From the NCBI GenBank assembly GCA_022813865.1, contig JALDZX010000008.1:124001-188000 (forward strand): 64,000 nucleotides of DNA, read 5' to 3'. The stretch is from Xylographa opegraphella (lineage: Eukaryota). The first letter of the stretch is position 1; every line of letters begins with the position of its first letter. Made by a program: the position numbers and the translations under genes. Shown piece after piece: positions 16,508 to 54,100 of this stretch. The notes under the pieces are model-generated. The model saw only the letters and a program-made list of their open reading frames with translations. It did not search any database and was not told the DNA's origin.

Positions 16508-16527
16508 AANAAAAAAAAAAAAAAAAA
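16508..16527. other. Assembly gap (N at 16510) within a poly-A run
   Basis: Single N followed by A17; contiguity across this point is uncertain. Confidence 0.9.
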
Positions 16528-26170: not shown

Positions 26171-29100
26171 ATGGCACGTACCAGCAGACGTGGTGCTCAG
26201 GCCACGGCCTCCTCGTCTCATAGAAGACCCAGAGATGCAACAGTACCTGACATTCCTGACGTATATCATGAGATGCTCGTAAATGCTGTTTCTTCGTCCC
26301 CAGGTGCTTTCGATGCCGACGGACGACCTCCAAAAAGACGTCGGGTTGCGGGTCGGCTGGTGGTTCGGCAAGATGGTCAGGACAAGTCAGCACCAAGACA
26401 AGAACCTGGCTTGGAAACTGCTGTCGATACCGGAGGCCATACTGATGCCACCCAGCGTTCGAAACTCCATCAGCAAGTAGCGTATGATGACTCTGAAGAT
26501 TCTGCAGAGAGTGACATGGATTGGGAAGAAGTCGGGTTGAGAGATAATGTTAAGCATGAGGATACGACTCCTGAACCGCGAGAGCTCAATCTTGTCTTGG
26601 GTGGGAACAAGGACTCTTCCCCCAAAAACACTGTCGAAAGGCGGAAACCCTTGAGTGCAGAGGAGCGGAGATTAAGACTTGAGATTCATAAAATGCATTT
26701 GCTGAGTTTGCTTGTCCATGTTCATTTGCGAAACCACTGGTGTAATGACCGTGATACCCAGGTATGTAGTCATCATCCGAACACTAAGGTAGATTTTGAA
26801 CTGAATGTCTCTAGAAACTATTGAGAAAACTTCTGCCGAAGAAGACACTCTCATATCTCGAGGACGATGAGAGCCAGTCCCAATTCCAGAGGTCCAGGTC
26901 TTTCATTGACGGTCTACAACAGGCCAGCGAGATCTTCCGGGCCAAATTCAAGATCACCGCCAGGGGAATGAGTAGGTCTTACTGGGCTGAAGATGCCGAA
27001 CATCTCGCAGAAGTAGGTGGAACTTGTTAATTTTCCATTGACCTTGAAATCGCCACGAATTGAACATTTAGCATTACCGGAAAATCAAGTACTTAATAGT
27101 CAGCTGACATGGTGTACACAGTCTGATATCCCAACCGACATCGACTTACCCATATCCAAGTCCGATTTCCGCGAAGCGGCAGCGGAAATGCAAGCTTCCC
27201 GTGACGTAGGCGCTCAGCTATTCTGTTCAATGCTTCGCTCTACCGGTATTGAAGCCAGGCTAGTATGTTCACTGCAGCCATTACCTTTCACCGCGACAAT
27301 CAAAGGGACAACTCCGGTCAAACCGAAGCCAGCCTTCACGGTATCCTACGTAGATACTCGCATAGGTATAAGTGACGAGGAGAGTGCCGCCGATGCTAGC
27401 AGTGACACCTCAATCCGAACAGCAGGATCTACAAGCACGAACGGTGCACTGAGTCGTATCAAGTCAAAACTAGGTACACGATTAGGACGATCCCAGCCGA
27501 TCAGTGCCAATGTCAAAATCGTCCCTTCACCACCACCAATAGCGAGTTAGTAAGCTCATCAACCCGGTTTGTGCTTGGTGCTAATATTGTCCAGAGCCTC
27601 GTCGAAAAGCCATTCGAGAATCCTCATACCCTGTGTATTGGGTCGAGGCCTTCAATGCCGCTTTACAGAAATGGATACCGGTCGATCCCCTCGTCACGAA
27701 GACAATTGCAAAACCTTCCAAGTTCGAACCGCCTGCTAGTGATATCGAGAATCACATGACCTATGTACTTGCTTTCGAAGAAGACGGATCTGCTCGTGAT
27801 GTCACCAGACGTTATGCAAAGGCCTACAACGCGAAGACTAGGAAATCCCGTGTTGAGATTACTAAGGGTGGCGAGAAATGGTGGCGGCGAGTGCTACGGA
27901 TCTATAAGAGAGGTTATATACTGGACAGTGATCAGGTCGAAGACGCGGAATTGACAGCAAAGGAAGCTGCAGAGGGTATGCCACGAAACGTGCAAGATTT
28001 CAAGGATCACCCATATTATGCGCTTGAGCGACATCTGAGACGCAACGAAGTAATACACCCAAAACGTGAGGTCGGTAAGGTCACAGCCGGCAAAACTAGT
28101 GCGAATAGTGGCAAGGCTCTGGAGTCAGTATATCGAAGGCGAGATGTGCACATGGTCAAGAGTGCCGACAGCTGGTATCGCCTTGGCAGGGAGATAAAAA
28201 CTGGCGAGCAGCCACTTAAGCGGGTGCAACCACGACGGAGGCGTGATGTGTCCGAAGATGAGCTTTCCGGAGATGAAGAAAATGCTGGAACAGGAATGTA
28301 TGCAGCTTTTCAGACAATTACCTACGAAGCGCCTCCGGTAGTAAGGGGAATTGTCCCTAAGAATGTATATGGCAACCTTGATATCTACGTACCAAGCATG
28401 GTGCCTCCAGGCGGCGTCCATATTGCTCATACTGATACTGCCCGTGCCGCGAGGGTCCTTGGAATCCATTACGCCGACGCAGTGACAGGCTTCGAGTTCA
28501 AAGGCCGCTTCGGCACTGCTGTGATCAAAGGAGCGGTGGTCGCCCAAGAATATCAAGAAGCCGTGGAGGCGGTGATAGGCGGATTTGAGTACGAGCGAGC
28601 GGAAGCCGAGGAAACCCGGCGTAGTCTTGAAGCGCTGAGGATGTGGCGACGGTTTTTGGCAGGATTAAGAATCAGGGAGAGGATTGATGGGTATGAGATT
28701 GAGGGTGAAAGGGACGCTGTTCAGCAAGAGATGCAGAAAATAGACGACGACATGGAAGAGGATGATGACGGTGGAGGTTTTCTGCCAGACAGAGATGATG
28801 AGGGTGGCGCTGAGCCTACGGCTGGGCGGGTATTCCAACCACTGCCCACATATGACTCCGAGGATGGTGGTGGATTTATGGATGAGGCTTCTGATGGAGA
28901 ATCTGATGGTGGTTTCGAAGACGGAGAAGACCATGCCGTAAGGGCAGTGGCAGAAACTGCCATCAGCAAGTTTGATCCTCCAGAGTACGCTGGTGGGGGC
29001 GGCTTTATCGAGGACAAAGAAATGGATGGTAACGACTCTGAAGATAAAGATGCTGAAGATGCTATGCGCGAGGTCGAACTATCGACTCGGGATGTTGAGG

Positions 29101-29597
29101 CTGTCTCCGAGGAACATCCACTAGGCATTACAAACGTCGATTCGGCAGAGGACGAAAAACCAATGAACGGTCACAATTCACCAGACCTCCACACAGAGCC
29201 CTCTCCCCATCCTGATTTCCCCCATGAGCTTAGTGAGCACGAGTTCGAAGAAGCCCGCCTGCTCCAGCAGATACACGAGTCCGAACATATGAGAGAACCA
29301 AGTCCTCAGAAGGATGCTACAGAGCAATTGAACGATGACGGCCCTCCCAGCTCGGCTCCGCCAACAGAAGGTGGCGCCACACCAATCGCACCCAAGCAAC
29401 CGCTTACCCAGCCTCCTCCCCAAGACACAGAGGAGGCGGGAATCTCAGTAGAGCCAGAGACAGACGGGGTTGAGTCGGGGGTGCTGGAAGAGACTGCAGT
29501 GTCGGACGCAGAGAGTGAGATCAGTAAAGGATCTTTGCTGTCTCATGATCCCTCTGACGAGGATGCGGAGCCGGAGTGGATAGCTCAGTTTGAATGA
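26171..29597 (+). CDS. RAD4: Nucleotide excision repair damage sensor Rad4/XPC, 4 exons
   Basis: HKMHLLSLLVHVHLRNHWCND, SRDVGAQLF...RLVCSLQPL, YWVEAFN...WIPVDP, ARDVTRRYA, DFKDHPYYALERHLRRNE, VPKNVYGNLD, YADAVTGFEF; acidic tail. Confidence 0.95.
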
Positions 29598-30244
29598 GAA
29601 TGAGTGGGAGGGGTGCTATTTGTGGTTTTTAGATAGGATGTGGTTACATTCACAACGAATTTCGAGCAATTTGGAGAATCCAGACTGTTTAGTGGGGGCG
29701 TGAAAAATGGATATATTCTATATGTATTAGCAAGGTTTCTAGAGCTCGTACAAGTAGTACAGGCTGGATTTCGAGGGAGCTAAACGCGGTATTCGCAACG
29801 AATGTTTCCATGCTGCCAGACGAACTTGTGGAAATACCAGAATCGGGCCGAGATGAGAGAAATGTAACAAGCTGTTAGTCAGGTAGCAGCTGGGGGATAC
29901 TTGGTAGGCGCAAGCAATATATGGTGGTGTGCGGAAGCTCTATGGGACGTGTAGACACAGAACAGCACGGCCAGGGCTAAGCAAAATCGCATAACAAAAG
30001 GAACACGAGACATGAAGATAGCCCTAGGAGTCTGTGCCGTACAGTTGGTAAGCATTTCCAGTTCTCAACTTTGATGGTCGTGTAAGCTCCGAATGCGGTC
30101 CAGAGCTGGTTGCCAAATGAACATACAAATTGGGTTTGCTTGGCAAAATGAAATCTCACTAAACGTGAAGTCGTGACGCGTCGAGCTTCAACAATGCCAT
30201 ACCCGTAAATTCCCGAAACGTCATTACCCGTGCTGCAACAGTCA

Positions 30245-32269
30245 ATGATGCCTCCCAAGGCGCGTAGGAGGCCAGTCGTAATGCGAGTCTACAAGACAAT
30301 TGACAGACCCAAGCAGACATACTTTACGCCTCGAAATCGTACAGTCCTGAACAGAAATCCGTCGCTCTCCGCCCCAACTACGCGGCAGCAAACCCTAACT
30401 CAAATCGACTTTGTCTCCCGTTTACCTGTGGAGGACGTGGATATGGACTTTGATTATGTGCCAGAAGAGACGCCTAGGGCGAAGAAGAAACGAAGAGTTT
30501 CCAAAGCGAGTGACGATCAGGATGAGGATGCTTCTTACGAAGAGCCTGTACCGAGGAAGAGGAAGAGAAGGAAGACCGCCCCGGTTACATTCGAGGGCAG
30601 CAACGACGTGCCTGATTTCACCGACCAAGCTTCTCCAGTACGCCCAAAGCGAAAGCCTGTATCCAAGTCCACGGTTGCACCGAAAGTGAAGATACCGCCA
30701 AGCAAGGAGAGTGCTAAGAAGACCGCAAAGAAGTCAACGAAGGGAGGGAAAAGCAAGCCTGAAGAGGTTATCAGGATATATGAGGAGTCACCGAACTCGC
30801 CACAAGCCCAATCGCGCCGATCGTCAGAAATCATGATGCCTCCTCCGCGGACGCCAAAAACCGCCATGAAAACCGAGATTCCATCTTCTCAATCTCCTGG
30901 CAACACGCCGCTGTCTATGCATAGCCGACGATCGGTGCGGGATATTTCGAGATCGCCTCTGAAGGAAAAGTCAAGTAATAGATGTATGACCAAGTCCTCA
31001 AAGGCTGACGGACGGAAAAGCGTACTGTGGACTCCGAGGTTGGAGGTCAAGGATACTTACGAAGGAGAGCCATTGAGTCCTGTCAAGAAGATATCCGCTC
31101 CACGAGTACCAAAGCTTGTGATTCAGGACACCTTTGACCCAGGTAGTGAGGGCAGCGAATTATCTACAATCACTCAATCGTCGAAAAGTGACACGATGAG
31201 TCAAAAGAGGCGGGTAACACTGGATTTGGACTTTCCCGCGTCTGATTTACAGTCGACGAGCCTCCCTTCGGATTCCGTTCAACTACGCCAAGTTTCGACT
31301 CGGAACACTTCCACCCCGACACTTGAGACCATTCAGTTAGACCTATCCATCAAAACAGAAATCCAAGATACCGATGACGAGCATCATGAGGGACATGGCG
31401 ACGAGGACGAATTTGACATCGGACTTGATACCCAAGCCGCTCTCGATGGCGCGCAGACTCTCCCACCAGATGAGTATCTGGAGCATGAGCGAGTACCGAA
31501 CATTGTTGAAGATTTCAACAACGCCATGAGGGCGGCTGCCAAAGGCGTTGGCGCAGCTCCTCTGCAGTCGGAGAGGAGCATCACAACAGAGCATCATCCC
31601 AAACCTGTCATCAATCCAACCACTCCCCACACGCCCCGATCGAAACATCCAGCAAACAACCAATTCCCACTCACCACCACTCAAGTACCACGCACCCCCC
31701 TTCGCCATCTCTCCGACTCCGACCAAGCCTCCGCCCAACTAACAGCCGACCTCCTTCGCCAGACTCAGCAACTTACGAACCCGCTCCTCAGCAAAGGCCC
31801 CCTCTCAAAAAGCACCCCCCGACCCAGCTCCACCCCTATCCTCATCGAAGACGACGACGACGACGCTCCCCCCCTCCCTCCTCCCCCCACCACCCACCCT
31901 ATCAAAACCACACCCACCCCCCCCACCCACCGCCCCCCCGTCCCCTTCTCCCAAGCCACCACCGTCGACATCACGCAGTCCTCGCCCCGACCCTCCTACA
32001 CCCAAGTCCCCAGCTCGCCCCAACCCACCGCCCTCCCACGCTCTCGGACATCCTTCCTCGACAAACCGCCCCGCGCTGCCATGCCAGCCGTGCCGGCGCT
32101 TATTTCCTCCTCGCCGCTGGGAAGCACGGCTGAGCGGAGCAGCCCGGTGCAGCTGCTGTGGGACGGCAGGCCGCTGACGGATAGCCAGTTGCTGCCGGAG
32201 AGTCTGATGCAGATGACGGTGCCGCGGCCGCCGCGGGGGCTGTCGCAGGAGAGTTTGGTGGAGGAGTGA
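30245..32269 (+). CDS. Hypothetical, largely disordered Ser/Pro/Thr-rich nuclear protein
   Basis: Uninterrupted ~674-codon ORF from ATG 30245. NLS-like KKKRR and RKRKRRK; short motifs QQTLTQIDFV, EIPSSQSP and LTDSQLLPESLM recalled from fungal hypothetical proteins. Confidence 0.8.
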   Translation: MMPPKARRRPVVMRVYKTIDRPKQTYFTPRNRTVLNRNPSLSAPTTRQQTLTQIDFVSRLPVEDVDMDFDYVPEETPRAKKKRRVSKASDDQDEDASYEEPVPRKRKRRKTAPVTFEGSNDVPDFTDQASPVRPKRKPVSKSTVAPKVKIPPSKESAKKTAKKSTKGGKSKPEEVIRIYEESPNSPQAQSRRSSEIMMPPPRTPKTAMKTEIPSSQSPGNTPLSMHSRRSVRDISRSPLKEKSSNRCMTKSSKADGRKSVLWTPRLEVKDTYEGEPLSPVKKISAPRVPKLVIQDTFDPGSEGSELSTITQSSKSDTMSQKRRVTLDLDFPASDLQSTSLPSDSVQLRQVSTRNTSTPTLETIQLDLSIKTEIQDTDDEHHEGHGDEDEFDIGLDTQAALDGAQTLPPDEYLEHERVPNIVEDFNNAMRAAAKGVGAAPLQSERSITTEHHPKPVINPTTPHTPRSKHPANNQFPLTTTQVPRTPLRHLSDSDQASAQLTADLLRQTQQLTNPLLSKGPLSKSTPRPSSTPILIEDDDDDAPPLPPPPTTHPIKTTPTPPTHRPPVPFSQATTVDITQSSPRPSYTQVPSSPQPTALPRSRTSFLDKPPRAAMPAVPALISSSPLGSTAERSSPVQLLWDGRPLTDSQLLPESLMQMTVPRPPRGLSQESLVEE

Positions 32270-32544
32270 GTGTGGTTTAGAGGGGTGGATGGGCTGGCAG
32301 GTAGGGTTTTGTTAGGGTTGGCTGAGGATTGAAGGGGGAGGAGATGATGGGTTTATTGGCTTGCAGAGGCCGATGGTCGAGTACCCACCTTAAGCGATCT
32401 GGTAGCTGGCTACTCTAACCAAGCGCGATCCATGCACACCGTACACAGCATTCTATAAGAAGAAGAATTGCGCCCTGTATTCGCCACTGCTCGAATCTCG
32501 CAATGCTGCATAGAAGCAAGATCCATAGAAGCAAGACCACACAT

Positions 32545-34470
32545 CTACACCCCACCCCCAAAAAGCCTCAACCCCTCCCCCTCCTCCCCATCCCCACCCC
32601 CATCCTCATCCCCATCCACCCCATCCCCCTCCCCCTCCCCCAACCCCCCCACGACCCTCCTGCCCAACAACCCCCCAAACAACTCCCCCACCCTCTCCTC
32701 CGTCCACCCCCCACCCTCCTGCCTCGCCATAAAGTTCTGCAACCGCTCCATAACCGTATAGCGCATCTTCCGGCCCTTACTAGCCTTGGTATCGACCTTC
32801 TTCCGCACCTTAGCCGCGCGAGTCAGCGCGCCGGCGTCGGCGAGCGCAAGGGCCCGGTCGTGGGAGCGGTGAGCGGCGAGACCGCCGCCGGTGGTGGAGG
32901 TGGCCATTTTGCGCTCGACGAGCTCGCGCAGGAGGAGGGCGTAGAAGTCGGCGTCGTCGAAGATGGAGGGGTCGGAGGCGGTGGTGGTGGTTGCGGCGGA
33001 TTGTGCTTGTAGCGGGGCGCAGGAGCGGGGGAGGCGCGTGCGGGTGAGGAGGCGGGGGAGGTTGGGGGCGGAGAGGTGCGTGTCGAGGACGGAGAGGAGG
33101 GGCTGTGTGCCCTGCGAGGGGGCGAGGCGCGAGCGTGGGGGTAGGGTTAACGGGAGGTTAGTCTTCGCGGCCCACTTGGCAAGGGTGGCGCGCTGGGGTG
33201 GGAGGGCGGCGGCAGAGAGGGCGGAGACGGTGCTGGCGAGGGCGGAGGTAGGCGTGGTGCGTGTGGCGGGTTGGGTGGACGGGAGCGAGGGGTGGAGAGA
33301 GTGCAGTAGGGAGGAGAGGCTGCTGAAGAAGGCGAGGGCGGCGGTTTCGGCGGCGTGGATGGTGGTGGTGGGTGGGGGCGTGGCCGGGGGAGGGATGGCG
33401 GAGAGGGAGTTCGTGGCGATGAGCGCTTTCTGCAGGTGGATTCGCGTGTTGAGGAGGGTGTCGAAGGTGGAGCGTTGGCGTTGCACGGCGCGGCCTTTGG
33501 CGACATCGGCTTTGGCCGCTCGCGTGATGGTCGCGAGCACGGTGGTCTGCTCTTCGGCCATCATTTGGCGGAGGGCTGCGCGGTCGGAGGGGAGGGGAGT
33601 ATTGGAGGGAGACGGGTCTCCGGTGCTAGAGGCATCGCTGTCGTTGTTGAGTTCGTCGTCGTCATCATCCGTGGTGCCACTGTCGTGGGACGTCGAGTCC
33701 GCGTCTGACTCTGGATCGTTGTTCCCATCAAGCCGATCATCTTGCGCGCTCGTGTTCTCCGCATGCATGGCGTCCAGTTCGGAGCCCACATCCTCGGCTT
33801 CATCCTCCTGTGTGTTCGTTCGGGCATCATCTGTCTTCCCAGATCCCGCAGTCTTATCCCTGGGCATTGCGCTCCCCCTGAATGTAAACCTCTTAAAAGC
33901 CTCCTCGTCTCCCTCCCCAAATGCCTTGTCACTATCAATGTCCTCGTCCTTGGCCTCTCCCCCGGTAGCCATATCCACATCCACCTCATCCGGGTCTACC
34001 ACGGCATCCTCATCTTGCCTTATATCTTCATCTTGGCTCATTCCCCCCTGCCGATTCACCCCGCTCCCAAACGGATCATCATCGCTCTCCTCTTCCACCA
34101 GTAGATCCTCACGGCCAATCCGCAACCCATCGTACCGCGGCCCGAGAGAAGGCTGTTGCGGCTGGCGCAATTTACTTACCCTACCACGCATTCAGCACAC
34201 AGGCCATCAGAACATGCGCTCAGTTATGGAATCACATACCCGACGTCCTCGTAATGCTCCCGCGCGTTCTCGTGTCCGACGTCTTCGGCGCTGGAGTCCG
34301 AGCCCCTTCTGTGTTCGAGCGGACCACCGAATTCTTCAGGATCGATGTCTGCGACTTTGTGTTAGAGTGGAGTCTTTGATCTGGAGGGGCGACTGCCGAC
34401 CTCTGCGGGCTGGGTCGTCGAGGTCTGCGATTTGTTCTGCTAGACTCTTGAATGGACGGGGGGTTGCCAT
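32545..34470 (-). CDS. BFR2: BFR2/AATF ribosome-biogenesis (SSU processome) factor, 3 exons
   Basis: MATPRPFKSLAEQIADLDDP, REHYEDVG|.SKLR, KGRAVQRQ..FDTLLNTRIHLQKAL, IFDDADFYALLLRELVE, VDTKASKGRKMRYTVMERLQNFMA (TRAUB domain). Confidence 0.93.
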
Positions 34471-35028
34471 TATTGTTGGACTGTGTGCGGAGCTACTATG
34501 GTAGGAATCAAATTTGATATTGTTCTTCGCTTGGCGGCAACCGTGCGTAAAATAGCCTTTTCTCCGATTCCATCGGCAGCGGGCAACTTTTTACGAGGCT
34601 TGGCACAATCAGGAGGACGCTGAGATGATGAGGAAAGTCTGGGGAAGAGTTGAGCCACAAGGTCATGAATAAGCGTAGAGCACACATGGATCACACGCTT
34701 TTGTACAAATTATCTAACTATGCTAAGATAGGCATACATCGAGTGGGAAAGAGCTGAGAAGCCATCCTTGTTTTCCATTAAACCCTCTTGCACCCGGACC
34801 TTGATCTCGCCGCTATCAATCCTTCTTGACACTGATCCCCAATATCTGCATACCAGGCATGTGTGCTATTCTCCCTCAAGCCAGAGAAAACACTCTTGTG
34901 CCCTTCGAAGCCCTAGAGATACACTCGGGCCAGGAACAGTCCCAAACGCCAGGTTCACTTATCATAAGTACCTGAGCAGCTCATCTACCGACTCGTGACG
35001 ATGAAGCTCATTTCGTCTTCGCCATGTA

Positions 35029-37094
35029 TCACTTGAACATCTTCAAAAAGTCTCTTTGCTCTTCGGGTGCTGGGCCGAGGATGGCATCAACATCCTTCTG
35101 GTCAATGACTGCACCCGATCCGGAGCACTTGGCCTTTGACTTCAATTGCGTACATAGATCGTCCATGTCGACCTCGCCAGACCGAATTTTCTCTGACCTC
35201 TGAACACGATCCCTGAAGATTCTGTTAGCATTTAATCAAGTGTAATTGTTTCACGCGGCTTCAGGGATGACCAGGCGACAATACTGACCATAGCATATTG
35301 CAGGTCAAGAATTGCTTCGGACCTTCACCAGGAACAACCTCATTCTCCTTTCCTGCCTGCTGATCTTCTATCTGTTGCATCAAGTCGCGCTTCCTTGGTA
35401 GCACTGGCTCGAGAGCATTGGTAGACGGGCTAGCAAAGTCAAGTGCTGGGAAAGCTTCGTCAAAGAAAGCACCAAAATCGGCATTCATGATGTTGTCTTG
35501 TGGATCCCTGTAATCGGCAAACAGCACAGGGTCGAAAGCTCCACCATTCTGAGCGGCCATCCAATCGATGCCCTGAAAGTTACTAGGAGGTTTGACCGTG
35601 GATGAAGCTGATGCGTCGTTAGATTCGGACATCATCAGAGGAACCGGATTCGCGGTTGTCCCGCAGGCCTTGGCAAACTCATTGCAGAAGCTTTTCTCAC
35701 CTTCGTCCTTGTTACTGGGAAGCCCACTTTGTATTGATGAGAACGCCGCTTCGCTAGCCTTGCGCTGCTCAGGAGACTCTGCAAAAGTCTCGGGCGTCGT
35801 CACGCATGAGGAACCAATACCATTATGCGACATCGAAGATGCCGATGGCGAAGCCCCGTTGGAACTAGTCGAGGCCCGAGTGCGTTCTGCATTATCTGAA
35901 TTTTGTCGTTGGTTCTTGGCGAAGCCCATGTAGTCCGTTGATGTGCTGCGATTGACAGCCTGAAGGATTGAAGGACTGAAAATATCGCTCAGAGCATCTA
36001 CACTACCACCGCTTAGACTGCCATTCTTTGGCTGGCTTGCGGTTCCACTTTGACCAGTATTTGATTTCGGACTCATGTTACTTGAGCTGTGTGTGAGATT
36101 TGGTGTAAGAGACAAATTCAATCCATTCGTATTTGTAGTACTTCTTCTAGCCGGATTCCCACTGAGAAATCCTGCATCTCCTTTATCCGCGGCATTACCG
36201 AACATGGGGAATTCAAAATGAAAGTTGTTGTTGATGTCCCAATTGGACTTGGAGGTCATCGACTGACCCATGATCTGAGGCGGTGATCGGTTTGCAGCAT
36301 TCGGATTCATCGCAAGGCGTTTTCGATACTCTTTCACCTCCGTTTGAAGACGATCAACTTGCGCACGCAGAAGACCATTTTCGTGATTCGTAGATTCGGA
36401 TGCTTTTTCAAGATCCTCGACTTTCGTCTCGAGTTCCTTCAGATGTCTCTCTTTCCTTTCTCGGAACGCCCTCTGAGCGGCTCGATTTTGTGCTTTGCGT
36501 TTCTTAACCGAAAATTAGCTGCAGTCTCTACACCGACAGAATGAGACTTACCGAGGTAGGTTCCGAAGTCAGTGGCTTCCTGCCTGGCTTCTTTGTAGAT
36601 TTGTCGTCGCCTTCGCGCCTCTTCCCACCACCATCAATGTCCTCGACATCATCATCAGATATTTTCCTTTTATCGTGAAGATCCGCTTCTTCGTCATCAT
36701 CAAATGAAGTTCCCGGTAGACTCCCGATCATCAGGTCACCGCCGATATCCCAATCGAAGTTCCCATCATCCAACTCATAATCGAGGAAAGGGCTTTCGTT
36801 GACACCAATGGCGCCAGACCCAGGCATGTTCTGGACAGGTGAAGCATAGACATCACTGTGATCGAGCGATTTCCGACCCGCTTGTTGAAATTGTAAGGGA
36901 TTGCTAGTTGAGCGAAGTCCACTGGGTCTCACGGCGTTGGTCGACATTGGAGGATCTGACCGTTTGTTGTTTGCTTGACCAGATTTGTTGGAATTTAGAG
37001 CAGTCAAAAGTAAGTCTTGTTCTTTGGGCGACAAGTACAGGTTTGCATCAAATGCCGACTCGTCGTGTAAGGCAGGCGTCATATCGAAGGCCAT
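35029..37094 (-). CDS. yap1: AP-1-like redox-sensing bZIP transcription factor (Yap1/NapA/Pap1), 3 exons
   Basis: KKPGRKPLTSEPTS|KRKAQNRAAQRAFRERKERH bZIP; FCNEFAKACG; QNGGAFDPVLFADYRDPQ; C-terminal Cys-rich domain TCNMLW|DR...LCTQLKSKAKCSG. Start at 37094 or 37082. Confidence 0.95.
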
Positions 37095-37460
37095 CAGGAT
37101 TTTGCCAATCAATTAGCAGGATAGGGTTGGTAATGGAAGTTCCAGATAGTGTCAATGGAGTTTTTGGTCCGAGGCTCGAGGTCTCTGTCGATGGTTGATC
37201 CGGGACACAGAATTGCTCGGGTTTGCGCAGATAAGGCTTCTCGTGCAACGGTGAAGAGATAGAAAAGCCTGAGGTGTGCAAGTAAGCAGAACCAGGCACG
37301 TTTCAGCCTGTGCCAGTCAGTCTCTATCTAGTGTCGAGCGAAGTCCGGCAAAGACCGGTAACCCCGCGATCCAAAGTGGTTGGAGTGGAGAGACGTCGAT
37401 GGTAGTGTGGGCTGATCGTCGGACGGTCCAATAAGGTCTTCACGTCACAATCGACGGAGA

Positions 37461-50410: not shown

Positions 50411-53385
50411 ATGCAGTTTTGGTCTGTAATTTTGAGTGTGCTCTATGTCGTTGTCGTTGTCTCTGTAAGTAAATCGGGCGCTCGGTCCACTGAAATTTAT
50501 TGCGATGACTATCGGCTTTGCAGCGAAATATGCCATGAAGAAAATTTTGCAGCATCTGACTGCCTCATGGAGGATGCTTGTCAGTGTATAACAGTGACCT
50601 TGCAAGATGCTGCCGCCGCCGGTATAGTCGTGAATCATTGCTCGAGCCAGCTCTCACGGTCTGCTCTGACAAGTGAAAGTGCTTGTGCACGTTCCAATAC
50701 TCCCATGAACATTTCACCACGGCAAGTTACAGATGCGGGAAGTTCCAATATGTCTATGGCTATGACTAGTACTCCGGTTGATTCTTTGCTGCCTACGACG
50801 ACAACAAGTATAGAAAGTCGGCCTACATCACTCAAATCACCCACCAGCAGCTTTACTCCGAGTCCAACAATCAATTCCACTCCGAGTCCAACGATCGATT
50901 CCACACCGCATCCGACAATCAACTCTACACCGAGTCCGACAAGTGACATTACAACGGATTTGATGAGTAGTTCTACAGCAAGTCCGATGAGCAGCTCGGC
51001 GCGGAGTTCAATCAACATCTTCACACCGGATCCGGTGAGTAACTCTGTACCAAGTGCGATCAGCAGCTCTACGCCGAATTTGATAAACAGCTTTACACCA
51101 AACCCGACAAGCGTTTCTCCACCAGGTCCAACAAGCAGCCCTGCACCAAATCCGATAGGCAGCTCTGCACCAAGTTCGATGACGAGCTCTGTATCAGATC
51201 CGATGAGTATCGCTATACCGAACATAATTAGCAGCTTTACCCGGGATTCGGTCAGCAGCAGCTTGGCACAGAATCCGATTGGAAGTCCTGAAACCAGTAC
51301 AAGGACCGCCTTTGCTGCTTCTGGTCCAAGCAATTCTCCATCGGCTTTGCTAGGCTCAGACCCATCGATTATAGTATCGTCATTCACGCCGGGTTATTCA
51401 TCCTCAAGCATGCCAGTAGGAGCCACACCGATCTATATAAGTACAGCGACTCAAGGCTCTACACTTCCACAAACTACCCCTCCACCCTGCAGTGATCTCA
51501 GTTGGACAGTAACTCCTGAACACTGGCTAGATATCGACGTTGACAAGAGCCTCGCCGATTGGTGGAACAACATTGTTACTTCTGGGGAGAAAAGCTCAAA
51601 TACTTTCGTGGGACTGTTATTCAACATATCGGGAGACGGAACTGTGCAATGTGGATTAAGTTCCGATTCTACCTGCGTGTTGCCGTCTTGTCAGCGTAAT
51701 CTCCCCCCACACCAACAACTCAATTCTCATATCTAATTTTGCCATGGCTAGATTTCTTGGATACTGGCCTGCCTAAATGGGCTTACTTTGCTCAAGTAAG
51801 TGTCGTGGAGATGAGCAAGCTTTTCAATAATATGGATGTAAGTGTACCTTGATCAAGTGGTGGCTCTGAGGTGGCTCTTCGATGGATGCCCTGAGAATAA
51901 CTAGTAATCTAGCAAGGAATGACTAAAGCAGAGGCCCAAATGGACCCCTTGATCACCGACATGGCCATAATATTTCCTTGGCAGAACCCTCAAACTCAGC
52001 TCAATTCAGCACTGCCATGGATCGAATTCGCCGTGACTGCGGTGCTCTCCTTCGTCCCTTTCTTCGGAATTCTTCTCGGGGCTGGTGCGGAAGGAGGCGC
52101 GTTCCTTGGTGGAATAGTGACGACAGCCGGGGAGTTGGCGAACGGCGGGCTTCAGCAACTGCAACAGGAAGATCCAGTGTAAGTCCTTCAACGCCGTCAC
52201 TGTAGGAATGAGGCTATCAAAATGGGGACTTACGACCATGCAGTGCACAGATTCTAGGCAACATTGAAGATCTTGGAATTTCGATAGAAACAGATTTCAA
52301 ACATGCTCGCACTATCCTAGATTCCTGGTCAACGACGATATTTAGTGGGGCTCAAGATGCGTCAAACAGAACAATTATGTGAGCTATTTAATACTGATGG
52401 CCACGATCTCATTCCATCCTTCTCGATCGCTAACAACGTTCGCCTTTGAAGCGACTATATGGCCTCCGGACGCTTCACCATAAACTACAACTCTGACCCA
52501 CCTGATTCGACCGCAATAGCGGAATTCTATTTCCAGATTCTGGTTTCCCAGTATGCAAACCAGGAGTGGCTGTAAGTACATCTTAGAACCTTTCCCATCA
52601 TTCCGCGAACACAGACTAAGCCTAAGGACAGGAACAACTCCAATACCTATGTCATGTGCACAAATGCTACAGACGTTGCCTGCGAGGAGAACTCGTTGTA
52701 CACAAACTCAAATCGCAGTTGCTGTCTCTATAGGTAAGGCACTTCACCCCGAGAACCCTAAGTAAGCCTACCAGAAACCATCTGACCCCAAGACCGTCAG
52801 CCTCGATAACGACGCGAATTATATCGATCCCCCACCAGGCCTTCCCGAACTCGCCAATTCCACTTACGGCATCCCCCCACCAGTATGCCATCCGTGCCAT
52901 CACTACCGGCAACCCTCTCACCCAACCGTCCCCTACTGACCATGACCACCTAGAACATCACCGCCTCCTCCCTCGCCTCCTACCTCGCGGCCAAGTACAA
53001 CTACACGGCCTCGACCTTCTACTCGACCCTAGACACCCAAGTCCTCCTCGACCCCTCACAGCAAGCCTTCGCCCAGGGCGCCAGCTTTCAGGGCGTCTAC
53101 ACCCTGCCCGTCTGCGACGTCCCGGCCTCGCATTCCAGCTGGGTGGCCAACTACTCCGCCGACCTTCTCTCCTGCTGCTGCGGCGTCGATTGCAGCGAGA
53201 CGAGGGCCTTCTTCGAGGCGACACGGATGGCGGGCTCCCACTCCGTCAACAGTAAGTGCCAGTCGCAGTTCCCGGGCTTTACGCCGATTAGCGCGGCTCC
53301 GCGGGGTGCTTGGGTTGGGGGGTTGGGCGTCGGATTGCTGGAAGGGGTGGCGCTGCTTTGGGTGGCTGTGTTTTGGTTCTTGTGA
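50411..53385 (+). CDS. Secreted, putatively GPI-anchored protein: Cys-rich N-domain, S/T/P repeat stalk, uncharacterised Cys-containing domain; ~8 exons
   Basis: Signal peptide MQFWSVILSVLYVVVVVS. Exons join in frame through GT-AG introns to GVYTLPVCD and SCCCGVDC, ending in SAA plus a hydrophobic tail (GLLEGVALLWVAVFWFL*). Confidence 0.8.
50852..51283 (+). repeat. Degenerate coding repeat, ~17 x 24 bp (octapeptide, e.g. STPSPTIN)
   Basis: FTPSPTIN STPSPTID STPHPTIN STPSPTSD ... FTPDPVSN ... FTPNPTSV ... keep an 8-residue register. Confidence 0.75.
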
Positions 53386-54100
53386 GCGAAATTTTTGACA
53401 GGTTGGGAGCGGCGTTCATGGGCGGTTGGGACGGGGTAGGCGTAGGGGTTTCTTTGAACGGGGGAATTCGGAATGTTTACGGTGGATAGAGGATCTAGGC
53501 TGTGGGGTTTCTCCATTTCATACACCGTCGCTCTTCTGCAATTCCTCCTTTCCAAGCGACTGGGATGACGCAGCGTGGACGGATCACTCACGATAAGATG
53601 CCCTCGCTGTCGATACCGCGAAATCGCGGACATCCTCGGCGGGATGAATCCTCTTAGAGAGTTGAGACTAAGTACCGTGTCATACCTCTCGAGCATTGTC
53701 GATCCTGTCTCCCTTGCATGTTTGACAAGGGGGCAGGTGTGTCGAATGAGAGATCCGCTGTTACGGAGAAGCAAGACCGATCTCCTAGCACGGCGCACTC
53801 TTTCTGCTTTTCCCGCTCCTGCGACACTCCCGGTGCGTATATAGGCCAGCCATCCGGTGGTATCCGCGGACGGCTGCGAGGGCAAGGCGGGAGCATGCAG
53901 CACGGGTTCATGGAAGACGCACGATTCAGCGCCACACACAGCGCCAGGCCTCGACATAGCGCAACGAAATCCGTAGTTGCGTAACGAGCGAGATCTAAAG
54001 ACGAATCCCACGCCGCTATACTCAATGCGTAATACAGACAGCGTCAAGATAAAAGTACACAACGAGCCAGCTGTCCACATTCACTCGACCGCCGTCCGCC

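Follow-up and report, generated by a model that had tools for sequence, protein, structure and literature searches.

An unusually strong C-to-G strand-skew switch at the 3' ends of two convergent genes in Xylographa opegraphella

Why does the coding strand of two neighbouring genes, C-rich further upstream, turn G-rich a short way ahead of each stop codon, strongly enough to alter codons and amino acids? The question is raised by a 64,000-nt stretch of the Xylographa opegraphella genome (contig JALDZX010000008.1, positions 124,001 to 188,000; hereafter the window, with positions counted from its first letter), in which the 3' ends of an unnamed gene (gene A) and BFR2 converge within 31600-33650. 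A model's reading of the letters alone, hereafter the sequence-only reading, had attributed the change to a position-specific mutational or selective process at gene ends, with fold-back, G4/R-loop-linked termination, and a recombination or replication initiation site as candidates.

Strand-skew blocks around two convergent stops

GC content in the interval 31600-33650 is 0.58-0.73, whereas it averages 0.50 (sd 0.057) over the window. GC skew recomputed on the + strand alternates through four blocks (-0.6/-0.7, +0.3/+0.9, -0.8 and +0.3/+0.6), which sit where the sequence-only reading had placed them: in 31600-32100 skew is -0.60 to -0.72, in 32100-32400 +0.30 to +0.51 (up to +0.87 at 32270-32350), in 32500-32800 -0.73 to -0.81, and in 32800-33600 +0.28 to +0.64. 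Absolute skew exceeds 0.45 in 18 of 639 sliding 200-nt windows, 12 of which lie within 31601-33500. GC3 is approximately 0.8 in all four blocks versus approximately 0.5 in the rest of the window. The stops of gene A and BFR2 are 275 nt apart, and a neutral spacer of 170 nt (32351..32520; GC.51, skew -.07) lies between the two gene-end blocks; around it the block pattern is mirror-symmetric as a reverse complement. The two changes from negative to positive skew are only ~700 nt apart. The C-rich blocks have more A than T on their own strand and the G-rich blocks mostly more T than A, with AT skew near zero across most of the BFR2 G-rich block. GC content was rejected as a predictor of absolute skew in the window (Spearman rho.12, p.04;.05, p.35, without the island). 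Tandem-repeat expansion was also rejected, as the interval holds just short C-run microsatellites (31846-31937 and 32572-32690), a small fraction of the 2 kb.

Logan contigs from run X1, possibly the source sample, cover 31400-33900 at a depth of 134-161 with no differences; the skew pattern is therefore not a consensus error. This re-assembly is split into separate contigs at C-runs. In runs X2 and X3, from other organisms in the same study, all matches were short and either of low complexity or confined to conserved patches, and they yielded no usable orthologous DNA.

Gene A is a conserved ascomycete gene on the + strand (ORF 30242..32269, TGA at 32267-32269), and our guess for its start is the first ATG at 30242. 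Its C-terminus carries a conserved motif of the form WxGRPLTDSQLLPESLM. Attempts to name it were abandoned, since no Pfam family matched and its Atlas neighbours are unnamed 'hypothetical protein' clusters of Ascomycota, of low recognition value. The C-block of gene A (31620..32085, + strand) is C-/A-rich on the sense strand (C3.64, G3.08) and encodes a P/T/S/A-rich segment; cumulative C3-G3 reaches its maximum at ~32078. The G-block that follows (32086..32350, + strand) comprises the last 61 codons (G3.72, C3.15) and the 81 nt after the stop, where skew is +0.87. Sense AT skew in the proximal 3' UTR is -0.26.

The main exon of BFR2 (32545..34191, - strand) encodes AATF-Che1 and TRAUB domains, and more 5' exons appear to extend out to ~34470. 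The protein is 100% identical to P0001 (rRNA-processing protein bfr2, Xylographa opegraphella) over 99% of the query, and this match, with the domain matches, confirms the gene name given in the sequence-only reading. The BFR2 C-block (32790..33649, - strand; GC up to.75) has C3.68 and G3.17 over 287 codons, which span the AATF-Che1 domain and the linker, and cumulative C3-G3 peaks at ~32832. The BFR2 G-block (32521..32789, - strand) comprises the last 81 codons, which encode the conserved TRAUB tail, and ~24 nt past the stop. It has G3.73, C3.07, A3.00 and a sense skew of up to +0.94, and carries short C-run/G-run microsatellites and three G4 motifs on the sense strand. The 5' halves of both genes had been called ordinary. 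This holds for gene A, in which the four-fold sites are evenly composed (A.26, C.23, G.27 and T.24), but not for BFR2, whose acidic 5' half already has a G-skew of +0.24 to +0.53.

Silent sites, codons and amino acids

The codon strings cited in the sequence-only reading are found in the sequence, and four-fold sites follow the C-to-G switch in both genes, as had been claimed. In gene A, they change from C.66 and G.08 in the C-block (n=107) to C.11 and G.78 in the G-block (n=37), with C:G counts of 71:9 and 4:29 (Fisher p 5.6e-15). The corresponding values for BFR2 are C.72 and G.15 (n=211) in the C-block and C.13 and G.72 (n=39) in the G-block, with C:G counts of 152:31 and 5:28 (Fisher p 4.5e-14). 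The claimed change of residues away from P/T/A/S is also real, and leads to G/E/D/V: between the C-block and the tail of BFR2, P+T+A+S falls from 0.49 to 0.09 and G+E+D+V+W+M+K rises from.14 to.66.

Protein composition and ordinary codon preference might produce such blocks by themselves. P/T/A/S/L-rich middles would bring C at codon positions 1-2 together with C-ending preferred codons, G/E/D/K/V-rich tails would bring G at positions 1-2 together with G-ending two-fold codons, and no gene-end process would be needed. The BFR2 amino-acid profile, kept across Lecanoromycetes (P+T+A+S is.41-.53 for the middle,.26-.30 for the 5' part and.08-.17 for the tail), is consistent with this explanation, as is the acidic 5' half of BFR2, where a four-fold G of.47 means that silent sites track local non-silent composition in three segments of the gene. 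However, the last 61 codons of gene A keep more C than G at positions 1-2 (C.39/.31 vs G.28/.23) while G3 is.72, so amino-acid content does not explain the gene A switch. The same amino acids also change codon: between the C-block and the G-block of gene A, proline CCC:CCG goes from 22:2 to 0:8 and leucine CTC:CTG from 10:0 to 0:7. The strong skew in the non-coding DNA past the gene A stop and the recurrence of the four-fold effect in unrelated ORF families (see below) also speak against composition. CpG avoidance, a candidate for coupling silent to non-silent sites, was rejected because the window has an observed/expected CpG ratio of.91 and the gene A G-block is rich in NCG codons. At synonymous sites, the composition reading is largely refuted by the four-fold and same-amino-acid comparisons, and we consider it improbable as an account of the locus.

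Orthologues and unrelated genes

The BFR2 orthologue set comprised 52 non-redundant metagenome loci and the window (53 in total). Codon comparison with orthologues, a check proposed in the sequence-only reading, located a C3-to-G3 switch 66-129 codons upstream of the BFR2 stop in 38 of the 53. The amplitude of the switch (its rise) is 159 in the window and 167 in locus L076, and four-fold G/C in the BFR2 tail is.68/.06 in L003 and.83/.07 in L016. The same switch is found in BFR2 and gene A orthologues of distant lichen and other fungi, and is common to orthologues of only 28-46% identity. The skew switch is old, as this distribution shows.

A recent strand-coordinated hypermutation (a cluster of A-to-G or T-to-C changes), or a sequencing or assembly artefact of this assembly alone, was considered on account of the opposite-sign AT skew. 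An excess of A over T in the C-rich blocks and mostly of T over A in the G-rich blocks is expected from T>C or A>G changes on one strand, and such changes create no sense-strand stop codons. This candidate was rejected: the orthologues contradict it, since six other named Xylographa species and Lambiella have matching BFR2 protein composition and distant orthologues share the DNA pattern, and so does the re-assembly free of differences, perhaps from the same sample. The pattern is common to Xylographa proteins and distant orthologue DNA, and the lineage specificity of a kataegis-like cluster is absent. We regard such a recent or artefactual origin as scarcely credible.

Gene A orthologues carry the C-block followed by the G-block both where they are convergent to BFR2 (loci L001, L003, L013 and L076) and where they are in tandem with it (L006 group). 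The convergence stressed in the title of the sequence-only reading is thus unnecessary, and the pattern is tied to the 3' end of each gene rather than to the convergent layout. This bears on another explanation, in which GC is lifted and the skew set from within the convergent spacer, either by a local GC-biased gene conversion hotspot or by a site where replication or recombination starts. The high GC3 of all four blocks relative to the rest of the window and the reverse-complement symmetry about the spacer agree with such a site. In contrast, the spacer is the least constrained DNA of the locus and yet has neither raised GC nor skew, so that the W-to-S peak in an unconstrained centre, a feature of gene conversion hotspots, is absent. 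Moreover, gene conversion is strand-symmetric and predicts no difference between C and G on one strand, whereas the blocks are strand-asymmetric; two changes from negative to positive skew within ~700 nt fit no replication model; and each gene retains its own pattern under a different arrangement. A recombination or replication initiation site, one of the candidates in the sequence-only reading, is unlikely given the neutral spacer and the tandem orthologues, and we consider the hotspot explanation as a whole very unlikely. On the evidence, neither a recombination or replication origin nor recent hypermutation is likely.

The generality of the switch was assessed in stop-to-stop ORFs of the window and of the flanks of the metagenome loci. 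Of the 18 further long ORFs in the window, 13 have a higher G3-C3 over their last 40 codons (p.009), as do 46 of 60 ORFs in the locus flanks (p 8e-7). Restricted to four-fold sites and counted by family across the window and other fungal loci, the effect is present in 39 of 54 ORF families (p 1.6e-5), and in 28 of 42 after removal of ORFs with a splice-like motif near their end. No comparable G3-C3 effect was found at ORF starts in the same sets. Unrelated genes carry a milder form of the switch. The sequence-only reading had named two outcomes that would speak against it, skew switches that are not enriched at stop codons and four-fold sites that do not switch; G3 exceeds C3 at the ends of unrelated ORFs, and four-fold sites do switch. 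Its general inference of a position-specific process at gene ends, reaching synonymous sites and amino acids, stands. The idea of such a process is already published for fungi (PMC3315797).

Described skew systems and candidate causes

We conclude that the locus is probably a local and unusually strong example of a known feature of fungal genes, the intragenic gradient of GC skew. In the body of the gene the coding strand would be C-biased; within the final 60-100 codons and the initial tens of 3' UTR bases it would become G-biased, and the bias would reach both synonymous sites and amino-acid usage. McLean and Tirosh (2011, BMC Genomics 12:638; PMC3315797) described, for 64 fungal species, 'opposite GC skews' between the 5' end and the 3' end of genes; in the part of the paper available to us, the species include many Pezizomycotina and no lichen-forming fungi. 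According to the same part, the skew acts on four-fold sites, amino acids and UTRs, AT skew is uniformly positive, and skew shows a negative correlation with GC content. The present case resembles what is described there, in particular a 'fourth group' of species, in involving many genes across Pezizomycotina, here 13/18 window ORFs and 39/54 families. As in that account, the coding strand is G-biased at the 3' end (sense skew over the last 150 nt, +0.30 in gene A and +0.94 in BFR2; G3.72-.76), four-fold sites are affected, with C:G reversed in both genes, amino-acid usage tracks the skew, as in the P+T+A+S values of BFR2, and the G-bias continues past the stops, for 81 nt in gene A and only ~24 nt in BFR2. 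There are also differences from the available account. The amplitude is far higher than in the average profiles (skew from -0.7 to +0.9, at a GC of.70 vs.50 for the genome). The C-bias, strongest at the 5' end or promoter in that study, is strong here as well but confined to the 3' halves (31620-32085 and 32790-33649), where it begins mid-gene with a jump in GC; the 5' half is flat in gene A and G-skewed in BFR2. On the sense strand, AT skew is positive within the C-blocks but negative at the gene ends (-0.26 in the proximal 3' UTR of gene A and -0.29 in the last 150 nt of BFR2), and skew is greatest where the DNA is richest in GC. The finding exemplifies a published pattern, is not a new system, and is not specific to this locus.

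As to the cause, we tentatively favour, at somewhat less than an even chance, a transcription-linked, strand-asymmetric substitution bias that would change sign ~200-300 nt before the stop, where RNA polymerase II may pass from elongation to a termination-competent state. The extreme amplitude may reflect weakly constrained, compositionally biased protein segments in both 3' halves together with a GC3 near 0.8, and the bias would therefore be visible at nearly every free site. Several observations count against a cause that is mutational alone: in BFR2 the G-block ends ~24 nt after the stop, with a skew of only +0.16 over the next 100 nt; mean skew downstream of other ORFs is only +0.05 to +0.12; the switch is sharp, with a position conserved over deep time; and the young variants of ten related lichen-metagenome loci (L006 group), which contain 879 biallelic sites, gave no visible W-to-S or strand-biased flux, at very low power, since only 7, 5, 21 and 14 variants fall in the respective blocks.

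Selection on the transcript or on transcription is a serious though doubtful alternative. G-rich, C-poor 3' ends could slow, pause or terminate Pol II through R-loops or G4 structures, or reflect CTP-limited avoidance of C, and C-rich, G-poor bodies could keep GC-rich mRNA unstructured. The G-block peaks within the coding end and declines fast in the BFR2 UTR, and the position of the switch is kept across deep divergence, both of which agree with selection. The 275 nt between the two stops call for efficient termination, and the BFR2 G-block has its three sense-strand G4 motifs. An adaptive C-avoidance model is proposed in the Discussion of PMC3315797, as far as available, and terminal GC skew in closely arranged human genes is associated with 3' R-loops in the consulted part of Ginno et al. 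(2013, Genome Res 23:1590; PMC3787257). The two genes studied here, which are likewise close together, share with them a positive GC skew at the 3' end on the non-template strand. The human elements reportedly lie mostly in non-coding DNA downstream of the poly(A) site, whereas here the skew peaks within the last codons and has a C-rich block upstream. Against selection, the pattern stays when the downstream neighbour lies in tandem instead of converging, and hybrid-prone regions of S. cerevisiae are described without a GC-skew pattern in the portion of PMC4911931 at hand.

Predicted secondary structure also counts against selection. The skewed interval holds 9 of the 13 G4 motifs of the window, but 6 of these 9 are on the template strands of the C-blocks and the gene A G-block has no canonical G4 motif. 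G4 potential thus tracks skew, not the gene end, and the motifs look like a by-product of skew and high GC. Predicted mRNA folding energy equals that of shuffled sequences, with no excess or deficit (MFE z +0.37 and -0.32; 20 shuffles each), and a search for long inverted repeats found none, the 19 pairs detected being all ≤29 nt, 75-93% complementary and of low complexity. The fold-back proposed in the sequence-only reading is not supported by these results. The sharp switch, the codon change for the same amino acids, the independence of gene arrangement and the unaffected spacer together argue against protein composition, against gene conversion or replication origins, and against fold-back of the RNA.

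A more far-reaching view, which we consider unlikely, is that gene-end skew in lichen-forming and related Pezizomycotina is a maintained positional signal rather than a passive mutational trace, and might mark the change of Pol II state. A sharp C-to-G switch would then be fixed ~70-130 codons before the stop, its place in BFR2 being conserved over deep time, and Pol II pausing, or an R-loop on the G-rich non-template strand, could be an example of how it works. If so, tightly packed genes could terminate within a spacer of <300 nt, and loci of this kind would offer the strongest natural tests of a question that is 15 years old. Since 2011, the models for the fungal C-to-G gradient have been mutational regimes tied to Pol II phases and adaptive C-avoidance. 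Our literature search on the mechanism of 'opposite GC skews' found no paper that resolves it, and among the papers found to use that phrase none seems to take the mechanism further. Compact, extreme and conserved in evolution, the locus and its orthologues lend themselves to testing the cause of the gradient.

A C-biased coding strand around transcription start sites of plants and fungi was described by Fujimori et al. (2005, BMC Genomics 6:26; PMC555766). To the extent that the paper was available, the present locus is similar in its sense-strand bias of C over G as a transcription-linked fungal trait, and differs in that the C-block is in the 3' half of the gene and not centred on the transcription start site.

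Blocks of this kind distort codon-usage statistics. Long spurious antisense ORFs also arise from them, for example at 32945-34504 on the + strand. A weaker third case is present in the same window in a putative gene model on the + strand (52780..53480): its sense strand is C-rich at 52780-53250 (skew ~-0.5) and G/T-rich at 53260-53480 (skew +0.59), the latter segment spanning an apparent stop at ~53385.

Compositional blocks at the ends of two convergent genes

The locus holds two convergent genes whose stop codons lie 275 nt apart. BFR2 is encoded on the - strand, and its main exon (32545-34191) contains AATF-Che1 and TRAUB domains and shows 100% identity over 99% of the query to a protein of X. 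opegraphella, a lichen-forming fungus and the source of the window, named rRNA-processing protein bfr2 in its source. Gene A, an ORF on the + strand (30242-32269), matched no Pfam family. It is a conserved ascomycete protein with the conserved C-terminal motif W-N/D-G-x-R-L/P-T-D/E-S-Q-L-L-P-E/D-S-L-M, and it adjoins BFR2 in Lecanoromycetes in one of two arrangements, convergent or tandem-upstream.

The compositional feature at these gene ends is real and very strong. A composition profile reproduced the four alternating + strand blocks described in the sequence-only reading, with GC skews of -0.60 to -0.72 (31600-32100), +0.30 to +0.51 (32100-32400), -0.73 to -0.81 (32500-32800), and +0.28 to +0.64 (32800-33600). 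The GC content of the blocks is 0.58-0.73 vs a window mean of 0.50 (sd 0.057), and |skew| exceeds 0.45 in 18 of 639 sliding 200-nt windows, 12 of which fall within 31601-33500. On each sense strand, a C-rich stretch (C-block; 31620-32085 in gene A and 32790-33649 in BFR2) is followed by a G-rich stretch (G-block) that crosses the stop codon, in the order that the reading had given. The 81 nt directly 3′ of the gene A stop have a skew of +0.87, and beyond them comes a neutral 170-nt spacer (GC.51, skew -.07). In BFR2, the G-block reaches ~24 nt past the stop.

Silent sites follow the switch, as had been claimed. At four-fold degenerate sites of gene A, C.66/G.08 in the C-block (n=107) becomes C.11/G.78 in the G-block (n=37; Fisher p 5.6e-15), and in BFR2 C.72/G.15 (n=211) becomes C.13/G.72 (n=39; Fisher p 4.5e-14). 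Between the two blocks of gene A, proline codons go from 22 CCC and 2 CCG to 0 CCC and 8 CCG, and leucine codons from 10 CTC and 0 CTG to 0 CTC and 7 CTG. The last 61 codons of gene A have C>G at positions 1 and 2, yet G.72 at position 3, and the synonymous switch is therefore not explicable by amino-acid content. We looked for CpG depletion and found none (observed/expected.91). The reading had also called the 5′ halves of both genes ordinary; this holds for gene A, where four-fold sites are flat, and fails for BFR2, whose acidic 5′ half is G-skewed. Apart from this point, its description of the feature was correct overall.

The skew pattern is not an artefact. Logan's independent contigs of sequencing run X1, possibly made from the source sample itself, show 0 differences over 31400-33900 at a depth of 134-161 and cover this interval in three pieces with breaks at C-runs. 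The only N in the window is at position 16510.

C-run/G-run tracts ~84-90% like the BFR2 tail tract (32576-32659) were found on other contigs of run X1, and tracts ~80-88% like it on contigs of run X3, which belongs to the same study but to another organism, indicating that these genomes carry such low-complexity tracts at several loci. Because stop codons are rare in the skewed GC-rich blocks, long spurious ORFs, antisense or out of frame and with as many as 519 codons, extend through them (32945-34504 on the + strand and further frames within 31500-33650) and constitute a trap for gene callers.

Conservation of the switch in orthologous loci

A P/T/A/S-rich middle and a G/E/D-rich tail of BFR2 are common to six other named Xylographa species and Lambiella, and Trapelia, Lasallia, and Cladonia show this profile in a slightly weaker form (P+T+A+S of the middle.41-.43 vs.46-.53 in Xylographa and Lambiella). 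A scan of metagenome contigs yielded 80 loci with BFR2 orthologues (identity at most 46%), 56 of them non-redundant. In many of these loci, G3 in the BFR2 tail (VDTKASKG to stop) is far above C3, with G3/C3 values of.61/.03 in L003,.66/.10 in L016,.71/.08 in L076, and.67/.01 in L056, and the 700 nt upstream of the tail in these strongly G3-rich loci are C-skewed (-0.26 to -0.49). Other loci have weaker values, around.3-.4/.2. Cumulative C3-G3 peaks 66-129 codons before the BFR2 stop in 38 of 53 sequences (median 112; 94 in the window), and the amplitude of the switch in L076 (rise 167) matches that of the window (159).

Orthologues of gene A are convergent with BFR2 in L001, L003, L013, L016, and L076, and lie upstream in tandem in the L006 group. 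Both convergent L001, L003, L013, and L076 and the tandem L006 group retain a C-block, 100-200 codons long, ahead of G-rich last 50-100 codons. In gene A of L003, the skew passes from -0.76 to +0.67 and four-fold sites from C.61/G.03 to C.06/G.65. In these sequences the switch is not tied to the convergent arrangement, and the feature is evolutionarily old. Fresh one-strand A>G/T>C hypermutation was our first hypothesis because AT skew and GC skew have opposite signs in each block; it is contradicted by the orthologue data.

Stop-aligned composition of other ORFs and the published fungal pattern

With gene A and BFR2 left out, and using stop-to-stop ORFs rather than verified gene models, C3/G3 in 18 other long window ORFs is.325/.203 at codons -160 to -120 vs.218/.336 in the last 40 codons, and 13 of the 18 shift toward G3 at the end (p.009). 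Among 60 non-BFR2 ORFs of the same stop-to-stop kind in the locus flanks, C3/G3 goes from.38/.22 to.214/.371, with a shift in 46 (p 8e-7). The starts of these ORF sets show no similar effect. When only four-fold sites were considered, 39 of 54 blastp families had a higher G-C over their last 60 codons (mean difference.19, p 1.6e-5), as did 28 of 42 once families in which a splice-like motif lies close to the end of the ORF were excluded (p.0017). The stop-aligned comparison of C3 with G3, which the reading had proposed genome-wide, thus gave an enrichment of G over C near the ends of these ORFs, and the C-to-G switch is probably a general property that occurs here at very high amplitude.

A third case is located at 52734-53480 on the + strand, where the sense strand is C-rich at 52780-53250 and G/T-rich at 53260-53480, a stretch that includes an apparent stop near 53385. 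The tail of this gene reads like a hydrophobic C-terminal anchor, and one of the 13 G4 motifs of the window lies in the gene (53303-53327). In a Rad4/XPC homologue (27585-29597, + strand) with a Rad4 transglutaminase-like domain and BHD1-3, the last 150 nt have G3.44 vs C3.10, and the 300 nt 3′ of it are still G-skewed (+0.53, +0.29, +0.27) despite the next gene being in tandem. ORFs at 35261-37112 on the - strand encode a protein of the bZIP type, with a basic region that presumably resembles the Yap/AP-1 type, and show a mild G3 excess in the last 150 nt (.38 vs.12).

A pattern already published for fungi occurs at this locus in extreme form. McLean & Tirosh 2011 (PMC3315797) treat 64 fungal species, among them Aspergillus, Fusarium, Neurospora, and other Pezizomycotina, describe skew that affects four-fold sites and amino-acid usage, and propose either Pol II phase-specific mutational regimes or an adaptive C-avoidance model. 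A position-specific process at gene ends, as inferred in the reading, had thus already been published for fungi. Compared with that pattern, the amplitude at our locus is much larger, the C-bias begins mid-gene with a GC jump, and the sense AT skew becomes negative at gene ends; furthermore, high GC accompanies high skew here, whereas a negative correlation is described there. The kind of feature is already known; what is new is its occurrence in this lineage, its amplitude, and the way in which the locus constrains the explanations.

Candidate explanations

Fold-back, one of the candidates raised from the sequence alone, is not supported: inverted matches are short and low-complexity only, and 3′ folding energies equal those of dinucleotide shuffles (z +0.37, 13/20 shuffles as stable; z -0.32, 6/20). 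A recombination (break) or replication initiation site in the spacer, also suggested there, is unlikely, as is gene conversion, because the composition of the spacer is neutral and the pattern stays with each gene in a different arrangement. Nine of the window's 13 G4 motifs are at this locus, and six of these are on the template strands of C-blocks, suggesting that they are a by-product; the local G4 motifs would follow from skew and GC and would not mark 3′ ends.

Our best guess at the cause, offered tentatively, is a strand-asymmetric, transcription-linked substitution bias whose sign would flip ~200-300 nt before the stop. The strong skew in the gene A UTR and the breadth of the effect across unrelated genes argue for such a bias. 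Selection on transcription or on the transcript, the other explanation left, is somewhat less likely; in its favour are the quick fading of the skew past the BFR2 stop, the weak mean skew downstream of other ORFs (+0.05 to +0.12), and the sharpness and conservation of the switch. At ten related loci, young variants within the blocks were too scarce to tell mutation from selection. Hybrid-prone regions of the S. cerevisiae genome lack a GC-skew pattern (PMC4911931). The nearest functional analogy to the locus is found in closely arranged human genes, whose terminal GC skew is linked to 3′ R-loops and termination by Ginno et al. 2013 (PMC3787257).
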